Positions 4,033 to 57,702 of a DNA stretch of 64,000 bases are shown in pieces (within the stretch, counting starts at the first letter, position 1; every line of letters begins with the position of its first letter). This DNA is from Eledone cirrhosa (lineage: Eukaryota), in contig CAXHJY010001150.1 of NCBI GenBank assembly GCA_964016885.1, forward strand, positions 1 through 64,000, given 5' to 3'. The position numbers and the translations under genes were made by a program. Under the pieces are notes generated by a model. The model made no database searches. It worked only from the letters and a program-made list of their open reading frames with translations, and was not told the origin of the DNA.

Positions 4033-4211
4033 AACGAAGGAAATGTGGTAAGGAACCAGGTGGACCATAACGCACCAAAGTACTCAATACTTAGGGTAGT
4101 AGAGTGGGTAATAGGAACGAGTAGGACCCCGACGGCTGAGCTCAAGCCGTTTCGTCCAGAATTAGCCGTCGAAACGGCTTGAGCTCAGCCGTCGGGGTCC
4201 TACTCGTTCCT
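4033..4211. mobile_element. Family A fold-back copy (long arm plus short inverted arm)
   Basis: TAGGAACGAGTAGGACCCCGACGGCTGAGCTCAAGCCGTTTCG mirrored by CGAAACGGCTTGAGCTCAGCCGTCGGGGTCCTACTCGTTCCTA. Confidence 0.9.
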
Positions 4212-5270
4212 ATATATATATATATATATATATATATATATCATAAGTTGTTTGTAGGGGAAAATATGAAAATAACTAATATTAAAGTTAGTGTCTGACA
4301 AATGGTAGAATAAACGAAGCCGGCATGGAAAGATATTATATCGATATTTAATGAAATCCATAAAGCAGAAAAAACAATGGTTTCAAAGATAAATGTTTAG
4401 AATATGAGTTTAAAAAACTGCTAGTTTATTTTGTCAACCCGGGAAGGATGATAGGGTGACCCGACCGAAATTTGAAGTGGCGGATCTAGTAAGTGCCGTT
4501 ACGCAATGTGATGCTGAGAGGATATGGTGAGGTGATACATTTTTCAGTATTTCCGCTATTAAAAACTATGCTTATTTAGCTTAGCCATTGTATTTCGATT
4601 ATTTATTTTAAAATAATGTTCACTATATTATGTGTACTGGCGGTAGAGATATATTTTGATTTTCGTCTAGTTAGTAAAGTGATATTGTCAGATTTAGAGA
4701 AGAAGAAGAAGAAGAAGAAGAAGAAGAATGTATCGTCAGGGCAATCCACAATAAAAATATAAATACGTGAAAACGAAACTTCATTGTTTTTCTTATGTAT
4801 ATACTCTGCCTATACATCGAGAGTTCATATTTGTACCAGCACCAGTAATTTACTGAATCATATACATTATATACACTATATATATATATATATACACACA
4901 CACACACACACACACACACATATATATATATATACATATATATATATATATATATATGTATATATATATATATATATATATATATATGTATATATATATA
5001 TATATATATATATATGTATATGTATATGTATATATATATATATATATATATATATATATATGTATATATATATATGTATATATATATATATATGTATATG
5101 TATATATATATATATATATATATATATATATATGTATATATATATATGTATATATATATATATATATATATATATATATGTATATATATATATATATATA
5201 TATATATATATATATATATATATATATATATATATATATAAATATACAGCTATTTATACACATATATATA

Positions 5271-5407
5271 TGGGCTTTCTGATGATTTCTCCCGAATGAA
5301 ACAGTTCTAGTCCTGTAGAAGCCATTTCTATATTAAATACTTATACTCTGATCTGTATTGAGTACCTTACTTACTGTGGTTACCGCCGATTGAACCTGGG
5401 GTAAACT
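5271..5407 (+). mobile_element. Family E element (HHR plus 3' tail)
   Basis: Related copies at about 12751, 27686, 31740, 34071, 42630, 59968 and 62608. Confidence 0.85.
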
Positions 5408-7356
5408 ATATATATATAAACTCACAAAGACATGTATATGCATGTGTGTTTATATAGGTGTGTGTGTATATTATATATCATGTTTAGATGGATATATCTA
5501 TATCTATGCAATCGATATATAAAACGCATTATATATATATATATATATATATATATATATATATATATACCTTTATTTGTCTGCCTCTCTGTTTTGTTCC
5601 CGTATAAATTTGCACTATATATATATATATATACATAGATACATATTTATATATATATAATATATATATATATATACATAGATACATATTTATATATATA
5701 TATATATATATATATATACATACATATATATATATATATATATATATATATATATATATATAACCAACTTCCATTAAAAACTATAAGTCTGTCTCTACGC
5801 TCCTTTGAGATTTGTTTGTATACTTCCACCTTTGATATATATATATATATATATATAAACACACACACACACACACACGCACACACACACATATATATAT
5901 ATGAAAAGATTCAGGACCCCGATGGCTAGCTGTCGAAACAGCCGGAACTCAGCCGACGGTGTCCTGAATTTTTTAATATTACCCACTCTACTACTCTAGG
6001 TATCGAGTACTCTGGTGGGTTATGGTGCAACTGTTTTTTTTTACCACACCCTATCTGATATATATATATATATATATATATATATATATATATATATATA
6101 TATATATATATATATATATATATATATATAACTACATAAACAGAGAAAGCTATTAGCGATACTCCGACCAATTTCCAACTCACTCAGCAAACATTAGGAA
6201 ATACCGGAGTATATTCCCAATGAAACGTTTGGGAGTGTTAACTATATTGTATTGTGTGGATAATTGGCTGTATTATTTTATATGAGATATACTAAATAAC
6301 TCATATATATAGGAAAAAAGTCAGAACCCCGACGGCAGAGCCCAAGCCGTTTCGACAGCTATTTCGGGAGGCTATATATATATATATATATATATATATG
6401 ATGGCTGCCCCCTCGTTATCGAGTATGGCCATTGCACGATATACCATTATTAATAATTATTAATTAATTCTATCGTGCAATGCCTGTGCGTGAAGATATT
6501 TTTTAAAGTGAGGAAAGACTGTGCACTGAGCCAATCCCACTCTCTGAGCGACAGTAGCTATAACCCGCAAAGAAGAAAAGATCAACATCATCGGTAACTA
6601 CTGACCCGCAGGTTTTATATCGGAGTTATCCCAGTTTCCTGAGTTGCCTTCTGCTAGAAGAATGCCCTGAAAAAGGCTAGGGGTCCTTCACTCCCAGCGG
6701 TTTAACCGCGTGATCGGGAGTCCAGCCCGACTATTTCTATGTCCCCACCCATATAGACACACATGCACTCATGTATATACACATATACATATACATACAT
6801 ATGTACATGTGTATATACATATTTACACACTTATGAGTTCTTCCGCCCTTTGTCAGGTTCAGCTTTTTGTCCTGCAGGGTGTCCAAAATCACCCACCTCA
6901 CCAAGTAAACTTGGTGGGGTTGCCGGTTTAGTCGCCGACGACCCGACCATGCGACAGGTTGTACAGGGTTACATGTTACCAGTAGCGCTTAAGAGTGACC
7001 CGACATATATATATATATATATATATATATATATATATATATATATATATATATATATATACATATACATATACATACAGATATACACAAATGTATACAG
7101 ACACACGTACATATGTACGTGTATATATATATATATATATATATATATATATATATATATATATATATATATATATATATATATATATATATATATATAT
7201 ATATATATATGTGTGTGTGTGTGTGTGTGTGTGTGTGTGTGTGTGTAATAGATGAAGACCCCTAAAAAATTTAGTGATAAAAGACGTTTCAATAAATTAT
7301 ACAAACGTTGAGAAAAATTGAAAATTACCTATAATGAGGTTAATAGAGGAACAGCA

Positions 7357-7484
7357 GAGTGGCTTGGTGGTGTGGTTAAGGAGTATACTTTCTAGCCATA
7401 TGATACTTGGTTTAGTCCAGCTGCGTAGCATCTTGGATTAAGTGTCTTTTACTATAGCCTCGGATTGACTTATGCCTTGTGAGT
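7357..7484 (+). mobile_element. Decayed tRNA-derived SINE of octopod type
   Basis: A-box-like TGGTGTGGTTAAG, degenerate B-box GGTTTAGTCC, then body AAGTGTCTTTTACTATAGCCTCGG...GCCTTGTGAGT recalled from abundant octopus SINEs. Confidence 0.55.
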
Positions 7485-7512
7485 AAAACTACTCGAACTC
7501 TGTTTCTGTACA

Positions 7513-55307: not shown

Positions 55308-55595
55308 ATATATATATATATATATATATATATATATATATATATATAACGGCGATGAATTTATTTTGCGAGGTTTTTGATATGAAATCGTGTGTCAAAA
55401 CAAATATTGTTGTACTTGGGGAGGATCATATTGTTGTCATACTATTGCCAGAAATAATAACAGAACACACTCACTGTTTGGTTGGTTTTCGCTTCTGTAT
55501 CTTTTATATCTCCATAGTTAATTCATTCAGCCACTAATGTTTATCATTGACTGACCAACGGTCAAAAATACAGATATAAATATATATATATATAG

Positions 55596-55992
55596 ATAAC
55601 GGTTTCTGGCTCTATCACTTGGACGCTAACGTCGAAACTGGAGAAAAAGCTAGACACGTATGCTCCGTGCTGCTTTAAACGTGTCTTGGAGGGAACACCC
55701 AACAAATAAGGATCTCTATGTCAATATACCAGCTATCAGCAGGTCAATACGTGGACAGAGACTCAGATTTGCTGGCCACTGTTGGCGTAGCAAGGAAGAA
55801 ATACCATGTGATGTGTTGTTATGGAGTCCATCTCATGGAGCAAGAAACGCTGGTCGTCCCAAGAAGACATACGTCAAGCAACTTGAGGACGATACTGGAT
55901 GCGCTGCGGAAGAACTGGCAAACGCTATGAGAGACAGAGATGGATGGAGGAAACGTGTCGTAGAAAGCCGAGCAAGCTCGACCTGATGCTGA
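55596..55992 (+). mobile_element. RTE-clade LINE 3' fragment
   Basis: GSITWTLT..MLRAALNVSW..HPTN..LY..QRLRFAGHCWR..GRPKKTY..AMRDRDGW; (TGA)n-like tail. Confidence 0.88.
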
Positions 55993-56640
55993 TATATAGT
56001 TTAACAAAGTTCTTTCGTTGCACATATGCAACATCATCAGTGGTACTATTATCATGTTTTCTTCTATTGTATTGTATTGTAATGTCTACAAAAATGGCGT
56101 AGACATTACAATATATACATATATAAATATATTAATATTTGATGAACATTTACATGTTTTAGTTGCAATTGACTAATAAAATCGCTAGAATGAAATATCT
56201 TAATTCAACAACATATATATAAATATATACATATATCCCTATGAATTTCATATACGTCTCTTTACTAGAAGTCAGATATATTTTCTTATGTGGGCTGACA
56301 GTAATTGATTAAGGAACTGCAGAAACCCAAAAAGCTAGAATTTAACATCCTTCTAGCGGGTCCGGGTGAGTTTTTACATTCATTTAATTTATTAATTTAT
56401 TAATTTATTATCTGAGTGACCCGAATTTTCCTGGTCGTTTTTTTCGGCTGTGCGAATGATTTAAGGCATCGTCTCTATGTGTTGGTATTTTAACGATAGT
56501 TATAGTTCTGGTTTATCCAAACTATTGAGCCCTCTGCCACACATGTCGAAGATTGTTTATCGTTATTTCGTGGGCCGAGATTCTGATTTTCGATTATTTA
56601 CTTGTATATATATATATATATATATATATATATATATATA

Positions 56641-56810
56641 TCAAGTAAGTATGTTTTGAAACAGTGAGCGAGTTTGAAATTAGAAAATATATAGCTTTCA
56701 CCGTATTTTTAACTAAAGGAATTTTAGCTTGATAACGGGGTTTAGAACCCCGTTATCAAGCTAAAATTCCTTTAGTTAAAAATACGGTGAAAGCTATATA
56801 TTTTCTAATA
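56641..56810. mobile_element. Family H fold-back copy lacking the tRNA head
   Basis: Homologous to 43275-43400; apex GGGGTTtagAACCCC. Confidence 0.75.
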
Positions 56811-57702
56811 TATATATATATAACAAAGGAATTGTGGTAAGGAACCAGATGGACCATAAAGCACCAGAGTACTCAATACTTAGGGTAGTAGAGTGGGAAA
56901 TAGGAAAAAGTATGACCCTGACGGCAGAGCTCAAGCCGTTTCGACGGCTATTTCTGGACACAAATAGAGTTCAGAAATAGCCGTCGAAACGGCTTGAGCT
57001 CTGCTGTCAGGGTCATACTTTTTCCTATATATATATATATATATATATATATATATATATATATATATATATATATATATATATATATATATGTATATAT
57101 ATGTATGTATGTAAAAGGTAAACAAGAATAGCTAGACCAACGACACAGTACATGGAAGAAATATGTTAATTGAACGCTTGAAATAGCAGGAAGAGAGTTT
57201 TAACGTTTCATTAACAGTCCTTCGTCAGAAGATAGAGTTAGAAATAGAAGAAAGTAAAAGGTGATTGGAGGAAAATGAGGAAATAAAAGGGGGAGAAAAA
57301 AAAACATGTGCTTATTCAGTCAGCCATTCTGTGGAGAGTATATATATTACGATAACAGAAGTCTGATGAGCTTTTGATTTCCGATCGATACAGATCGGAC
57401 ATTGAGCTGAGCAATCGAGAAACATGCATTACACTTCAATAAATGTAATGAAAATTTGACACCTCGTCCATAGTTTATATATATATATATATATATATAT
57501 ATATATATATATATATATATATATATATATATATATAAAATATATATATATATATATATATATATATATATATATATATAAAGATTAACATTGTCGGCGG
57601 TACAACAAGGGGCTTTATCTCAAGTACTCAACCTCTAACTGGATTACCTATAACGATAACTTGTTATCCCATATATATATATATATATATATATATATAT
57701 AT

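Follow-up and report, generated by a model that had tools for sequence, protein, structure and literature searches.

The stretch of DNA analysed here, hereafter the window, covers 64,000 nucleotides (nt) from Eledone cirrhosa (assembly GCA_964016885.1, contig CAXHJY010001150.1, positions 1 to 64,000) and carries many copies of a short repeat, family A, whose arms contain the 3′ half of a hammerhead ribozyme. Positions within the arms are numbered from the G of GAAA in this ribozyme half (position 0), negative values lying upstream. Thirteen hairpins were found, 12 of family A and one of its older sister, family C, with (TA)n on both flanks of each. They are built head-to-head from a tailed arm ending at about +119 and a tail-less arm ending at about +39, and both hairpin ends join the (TA)n microsatellite via a TAT match. 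In the list below the hairpins have no strand of their own; a stop is the upstream end of an arm.

4033..4211, family A hairpin: tailed arm on − (stop −1), tail-less arm on + (stop −17)
15089..15283, family A hairpin: tailed arm on − (−18), tail-less arm on + (−16); ends approximate
15372..15565, family A hairpin: tailed arm on − (−21), tail-less arm on + (−13); ends approximate
26954..27162, family A hairpin: tailed arm on − (−19), tail-less arm on + (−18), 10-nt insert; ends approximate
28695..28900, family A hairpin: tail-less arm on − (−21), tailed arm on + (−20); ends approximate
28929..29135, family A hairpin: arms of different subfamilies, apex common to its neighbour; ends approximate
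30432..30630, family A hairpin: stops −18 and −18, a single base between the arms
31863..32080, family A hairpin: stops −21 and −21, 11-nt insert
32128..32320, family A hairpin: palindromic apex
39789..39945, family A hairpin: joint in stem III (+3 and −7); ends approximate
42828..43020, family C hairpin: ends approximate
47991..48160, family A hairpin: tail-less arm (−15) reaching 23 nt beyond the tailed arm (+8); ends approximate
56822..57026, family A hairpin: tailed arm on − (−17), tail-less arm on + (−14)

The hairpin at 28929..29135, with its mixed-subfamily arms, is contained in a 636-nt palindrome (28,597-29,232) that has a duplicated apex. The other family A sequences of the window are unpaired arms, arms with remnants of a partner, and fragments of the tail:

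2643..2774, −: unpaired tailed arm (stop −16), fused to a different repeat bearing CTGACGA
3194..3250, +: unpaired tail-less arm (stop −16), fused to an arm of a second family, B
6320..6365, −: unpaired tail-less arm (stop −12); ends approximate
24039..24178, −: unpaired tailed arm, meeting (TA)n at −19
29249..29306, +: tail-less arm (stop −17) with a remnant of an inverted arm; ends approximate
43063..43213, −: longest arm of the window, extending to −42 and showing the distal hairpin of stem II
44659..45088, +: two tail-only fragments, near 44,670-44,742 and 45,016-45,088
45413..45551, +: tailed arm (stop −18) with a short inverted remnant

A preliminary description, made from the letters of the window alone, had reported about 24 copies of a half-hammerhead motif, some 12 of them folding back on themselves with apex loops that vary from copy to copy, and none bearing the 5′ core word CUGANGA. 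These observations were borne out. The motif was found 11 times exactly, 22 times when one mismatch was allowed and 28 times when up to two or three were allowed; a looser core pattern gave 33 arms with a ribozyme half, 3 of which belong to family C. Twelve of the hairpins are of family A, and the example placed at about 31,995, in hairpin 31863..32080, reads as quoted. No copy in the window reaches the 5′ half of the ribozyme, and Rfam gave no hammerhead match in the window. Two arms just outside the range first described are fused to foreign CTGANGA words (2,751-2,788 and 3,120-3,250). The different repeat bearing CTGACGA occurs at 2751-2880, where its fusion with a family A arm gives a chance core-to-GAAA layout, and at 4726-4875, where it adjoins (GAA)n.

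Forty random 10-kb stretches of the genome held 16 arms in total, so that the window is a dense spot. The source genome is 3.0 Gb in size and (TA)n-rich, and two tail 30-mers gave 12,717 and 21,988 exact matches in it (at least 34,705 tail matches for family A). None of the family patterns had a match when reversed as a control. In a single study, contigs of unspecified kind also contained strand-switch joints at −17 to −19, and at each of the two 3′ sites they had arms ending in (TA)n; as these contigs possibly come from the assembled sample, they argue only against an assembly artefact.

The parent element and its hammerhead ribozyme

The route to the parent of family A was the longest arm of the window. 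A 36-nt pattern based on it had 1,101 matches in the genome, and most of the 30 loci read from this pattern extended upstream into a common 3′ untranslated region. Long copies ran on into fragments of an open reading frame (ORF) encoding a reverse transcriptase (RT) and a GIY-YIG endonuclease. The parent unit, measured on a tandem (locus L126), is 3,141 bp long. All parent copies read had broken ORFs. A natural ORF fragment of 409 amino acids (aa) had 81 longer homologs, at 32-43% identity, and the natural fragments aligned end to end with homologs of about 720 aa, YRDD and VIY..YIG being in order. The alignment contained RWR (RWK in the homologs), DKT, YRDD, CNC-X5-C (CxCX5C) and a GIY-YIG-type pair, and in the endonuclease part CxxC..E and N..CKH (CxH), the GIY and YIG words being separated by a stretch with a single Cys. 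Pfam recognised GIY-YIG weakly on the ORF fragments (E 0.069) and gave no match to an RT model on them; a PDB search returned no useful match.

The accessible part of PMC8557442 gives, as marks of the Hydra clade of Penelope-like elements (PLEs), RWK, DKT and CxCX5C, with CxxC and CxH around the E and N of the endonuclease and no CCHH. The parent ORF has the RWK-type motif, DKT, CxCX5C, CxxC and CxH. Further traits agree with a PLE in general (RT and C-terminal GIY-YIG in a single ORF; partial tandems, such as that in L126; long inverted pairs with a 5′-truncated copy; an optional tail) and with the Hydra clade in particular (insertion in (TA)n). Tail-to-leader junctions numbered 98, and family A arms have two fixed 3′ ends, +39 and +119. 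From these sequence features, family A is almost certainly the 3′ end, or pseudo-long terminal repeat (pLTR), of a 3.1-kb Hydra-clade PLE.

In the long copies the missing 5′ half of the ribozyme is present. Stem I is formed by ACCCC and GGGGU, the core has seven bases, and stem II is long, about 57 nt, consisting of nine base pairs and a distal hairpin. With a stem III of 5-6 bp, this is a non-minimal type I fold. The core read UUGANAA (U3-A8) in 5,149 exact genome matches, with all four bases occurring at position 7, and CUGANAA (C3.A8) in 1,647; cores with G8 had only 31 matches, 10 of them CUGANGA (C3-G8). The core is a variant of the canonical CUGANGA of Hydra hammerheads, and the ribozyme is not absent. 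The three-helix fold paired 90.5% of cells across 12 natural copies drawn from families A and C. Three helices surround the core and covariation is present, double changes being found at three pairs of stem II, all from the split between A and C, and at none in stems I and III. Minimum free energy prediction yielded the three-way fold with z between −0.7 and −2.9, and Rfam gave no hammerhead match on the long-copy ribozyme. We conclude that family A long copies carry a complete variant hammerhead fold; the reading of the motif as a hammerhead 3′ half was right. The same description had looked to master copies reading GACCCC-CTGANGA. Longer parents with stem I and a long stem II do exist; that literal word was found 63 times, against 99 for its reversed control.

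Other candidates for the complete ribozyme or for its use were rejected. CTGANGA placed 10-40 nt above the core gave 44 matches, and the 30 that were read were junctions or fusions with other repeats. A type II permutation with CUGANGA downstream was discarded, no such word being seen on reading the tail. As for cDNAs ending at the ribozyme cut, about 7-8 of the first 100 of 980 short-junction matches started exactly at +23 (by eye), which is no commoner than the microhomology peak at +13 (about 7, same sample, by eye); counted by eye, genomic arm ends showed no clear excess at the predicted GUC cut site. Among loci selected by CTGANGA, six (L018, L019, L026, L029, L033 and L037) have family A arms fused to other repeats near that word, and in L019, L021, L025 and L037 flanking DNA is inversely duplicated beside family A arms.

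In a tree whose root is weak, C3.A8 copies fell between two U3-A8 groups (support 100/99 and 99/86). This subfamily (L169, L257, L259, L267, L273, L274) suggests amplification without a sound core, and the U3-A8 pair was possibly restored later from C3.A8. That a mismatched subfamily left at least 1,647 long copies fits a dispensable cleavage. U3-A8 hammerheads are natural and active in vitro, and occur in Schistosoma PLEs (about 1,300 hits), according to the accessible parts of PMC4209133 and PMC3088659; the role of PLE hammerheads has been called unknown (PMC7761336).

The stop zone and what may set it

Arm stops were collected from the window, 60 random 10-kb stretches, tail-anchored loci and loci anchored on family B, loci picked by 5′ patterns being excluded, and 316 arms were scored against nine natural long copies. 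The stop rate per nt was 1.2% from +8 to −11, 8% from −12 to −16, 26% from −17 to −22, and 1.0% beyond. Among the 250 arms that reached −12, 228 had stopped by −22, whereas 10 of the 316 passed −70. The apex of the hairpins does lie inside stem II, as first proposed, and its positions are sharply clustered rather than uniformly spread. The cluster lies 12-22 nt upstream of GAAA, with the mode at −17/−18, and not at the 15-30 nt first described. In a smaller sample, 40 of 72 unpaired arms ended in the same zone. The stop is therefore independent of the fold-back, and the earlier idea that folding back deletes the 5′ half of the ribozyme is not supported.

Family A arms stop most often at −18, on the A of T(T/C)AGT, a word found in 66 of the 67 long arms listed (of 70). 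Located 29-31 nt upstream of this A, within the 5′ strand of stem II, is a TATTTA word, in the form TATTTATT (47) or TATTTAAA (11) among the listed long arms. We take the two words to resemble the initiator and TATA consensus sequences. For comparison we used family B, another family of short hairpins, in which the hammerhead is canonical (CUGAUGA), stem II is short and the tail box is related to that of family A. Its core has 27,663 exact genome matches, and its window copies lie at 3120-3193, 5272-5407, near 27,700-27,870, 31,740-31,830, 34,100-34,280 and elsewhere, one of them with the ribozyme entire:

5272..5407, +: family B short arm with a complete canonical hammerhead, not family A

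Out of 78 family B arms, 37 scored at −20 to −26 (two of these being, by eye, long copies of diverged subfamilies) and 0 at −27 to −32; 14 were long and 27 stopped earlier. The family B stop does not fall in stem II: it lies upstream of CUGA, some 30 nt below a TATAAATA that is conserved in the long copies. Six diverged long family B copies all had ATAAATAC unchanged, with a spacer that differed, and in four of the six the stop came 29-30 nt below it. Families A and B alike have their modal stop 81-82 nt above the common tail box. A promoter has been mapped in the pLTR of the D. virilis Penelope (PMC2377424). The sequence evidence makes it probable that the stop is the 5′ end of an RNA defined by this putative promoter; a transcription start accounts most simply for the stop, the promoter words, family B and the tail-box spacing.

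Several observations weigh against a transcription start, and some of them favour a different cause of the stop, in which two cDNAs are still joined but each is halted by RNA structure, by a protein bound at stem II or by a nuclease cut in the loop. In folds of subfamily A1 the −22 edge coincides with the edge of the apical loop of stem II, and the rise of the stop rate at −12 with the end of the proximal helix; stem II has moreover been kept by compensatory changes. Of 30 ORF-linked upstream pLTRs, about 15 pass the ribozyme and about 4 start in the stop zone (by eye). Since these pLTRs mostly pass the zone, full-length copies would need read-through RNA or strand transfer. As many as 62 arms end at −19 to −22, upstream of the −18 A, which calls for several starts or chance matches. 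In the remaining two of the six family B copies ATAAATAC stands 24 and 33 nt from the stop, and the 13 long family B references were chosen by a TATA pattern. A cap-G filtered test gave a non-significant 9/25 vs 20/97 (p=0.12). Of 9,794 non-T matches, the first 100 had G at −19 in 44, C in 48 and A in 8 (by eye), but G or C can come from the partner arm. Finally, family C, which has compensatory changes in stem II and A8 in two long copies (window 5915-6050 and 42,828-43,020; L177, L188, L097), stops near −18 yet lacks a TATA-like word.

Family C argues against a structural stop as well, its distal fold being different from that of family A while the stop stays near −18. So does family B, whose stop at −20 to −26 is upstream of CUGA and not in its short stem II, and so does the low stop rate over stems I and III and the proximal part of stem II, which the RT meets first. 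We regard a stop imposed by structure, protein or nuclease as unlikely, and prefer the transcription start.

Pairing, junctions and origin of the hairpins

A tailed arm was paired with a tail-less one in 109 of 111 hairpins, and two tailed arms in one. The same pairing was seen in 8 of 9 long inverted pairs. Within the 109 pairs, the tail-less arm reached further by at least 3 nt in 31, the tailed arm in 36, and the two ended within 2 nt of each other in 42. The long arms were tail-less in 34 of 70 cases, and in the long insertion L111 the tailed arm measures 0.75 kb and the tail-less one about 2.5 kb. Both arms bore the same subfamily tag, to within one mismatch, in 65 of 75 pairs, where shuffling gave a mean of 17 and at most 29. 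Rare alleles were seldom common to both arms (2 vs 89). At the junctions of 75 pairs there were 25 overlaps, mostly of 1-2 nt, 17 blunt joints and 33 gains of letters, and 13 of 25 inserts matched sequence at or below the stop, against a shuffle mean of 3. Inserts that copy nearby sequence occur in end joining.

These data bear on the proposal of the preliminary description, by which a single cDNA snaps back at stem II and primes its own copying, the short arm being copied from the long one. It would explain the subfamily tags common to both arms, the retention of the natural loop in L107 and L140, where the switch lies in the distal hairpin, and also the pairing of tailed with tail-less arms, if copying ended at a TAT match. 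A copy cannot, however, contain what its template lacks; under snap-back the tailed arm must come first and reach furthest. In the 31 pairs just mentioned the tail-less arm has templated sequence missing from the tailed arm, and its excess amounts to kilobases in L111. That the tail-less arm is so often the longer one, among the long arms too, indicates that both arms are primary cDNAs. Moreover, unpaired arms have the same stop, family B stops outside stem II, and few arms (8 of 316) have ends from −25 to −60, the place expected for a snap-back in the natural hairpin. Snap-back as the main route is largely refuted, and we hold it to be quite improbable.

Joining of two cDNAs very probably makes the hairpins. 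Two points temper this conclusion: central deletions after insertion could yield part of the arm asymmetry, and tail-anchored sampling under-counts pairs of two tail-less arms, pairs of two tailed arms being visible to it. Deletion has also been considered as the origin of the apex itself, longer perfect palindromes being inserted and then losing their centres. Perfect palindromes are unstable, and some junctions resemble microhomology deletions; but the sharp −22 edge and the identical stop of unpaired arms would be without reason, and the gains of letters, with inserts matching near-stop sequence, do not fit, so that this origin is very improbable. That the hairpin copies itself as a unit, acting like an autonomous miniature inverted-repeat transposable element (MITE) or a retrozyme, is scarcely credible in spite of its high copy number and inverted shape: the arms are unequal and the interior and apex junctions vary from copy to copy (a target duplication would be unreadable in (TA)n), both ends are internal PLE sites, and the short form is a head-to-head pair of half-ribozymes, not a tandem of units with a whole hammerhead.

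We think it moderately probable that family A hairpins are paired short cDNAs of a Hydra-clade PLE which ran off the transcription start and were end-joined. The RNA would start at about −18 to −22, inside stem II. The PLE enzyme, a dimer by analogy with the PLE protein PAc, would nick both strands of (TA)n; one cDNA would begin at +119 and the other at +39, with one start site for each subunit, and both would run off the RNA 5′ end. The two cDNA ends would then be trimmed and joined at the apex by host end joining. Loading of the enzyme at the 3′ pLTR of a long RNA would produce long inverted arms with the whole ribozyme. The 5′ half of the ribozyme would be missing from the hairpins because the template begins downstream of it, not because of a fold-back. 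If this reading is true, the promoter words of family A lie inside stem II and a capped RNA could never self-cleave.

Whether PLE integration in general is an asymmetric reaction of two cDNAs, one subunit always using the tail-end start and the other the pLTR-end start, with loading near the RNA 5′ end giving paired strong-stop DNAs that run off a TATA/initiator start and integrate, seems to us an evenly balanced question. If so, such abortive pairs would be the bulk of the family and would map a PLE promoter to the base from genomic DNA alone, and PLE inverted ends would have a general origin.

Three further features of the window were noted. At 13,380-15,042 and 53,919-54,592 there are two inverted repeats, near-perfect and not of family A, whose arms measure about 290 nt; a weak tRNA match (33.4 bits), possibly the head of a short interspersed element (SINE), is at 43,470-43,541; and a long array of a 10-nt unit with variants occupies 7505-8440.

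Relation to known systems

Published work on PLEs already covers truncated copies in inverted orientation, tails on one side only, two RT starts and U3-A8 cores. A stop at a start site, or an obligate pairing of two start sites, was not found in a literature search in which subscription journals were poorly covered. Family A offers tens of thousands of junctions that constrain the PLE mechanism to two primary cDNAs, one per start site, with a common stop, and this constraint predicts specific outcomes for an in vitro PLE assay and for 5′-end sequencing. Annotation could leave short repeats like these among the unclassified SINEs or MITEs; for an octopus, 893 unclassified SINE families have been annotated among recent insertions.

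Retroviral strong-stop DNA arises when cDNA begun at an internal primer site runs off the nearby 5′ end of the RNA, and in L1 twin priming the use of two primers leads to an inversion. Unlike in these systems, the family A cDNAs would cover the same sequence and be integrated directly as an inverted duplication, with neither a long terminal repeat nor a tRNA primer. Non-LTR retrozymes, as described in the accessible part of bioRxiv 10.64898/2026.07.22.740005, are likewise PLE-derived, non-coding and hammerhead-related, but form head-to-tail tandems with whole ribozymes, whereas family A hairpins would be head-to-head dead-end products. With the U3-A8 hammerheads (PMC4209133 and PMC3088659, accessible parts) family A shares the U3-A8 covariation, to which it adds the non-minimal type I fold and the C3.A8 subfamily.

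Close in kind are the Hydra-clade PLEs of PMC8557442, in the accessible part of which a cephalopod member, Hydra-1_Obim, is listed and the origin of PLE tandem and inverted insertions is named an open task. Likenesses extend to the RWK-type motif, DKT, the CxCX5C linker, the C-terminal GIY-YIG, the (TA)n targets, a hammerhead near the 3′ end, an inverted 5′-truncated copy and a tail at one end. The Hydra hammerheads seen in its File S2, however, all have a CUGANGA core and a short stem II, against U3-A8 or C3.A8 and a stem II of about 57 nt in family A; the tail is 30-40 nt in these PLEs, with no fixed stop described in that part of the source, and 80 nt in family A with its 3.1-kb unit. As to mechanism, a close parallel is the in vitro work on the Poseidon enzyme PAc (PMC11167929). 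According to its accessible part, the tail is set by two internal RT starts, nicks are AT-rich, both strands are extended, the enzyme is predicted to be a dimer and the template need not be cleaved, all of which resembles what is proposed here. There, no strand difference in start-site use was seen and inverted ends were left unexplained, whereas each family A insertion combines one start of each kind with a common stop.

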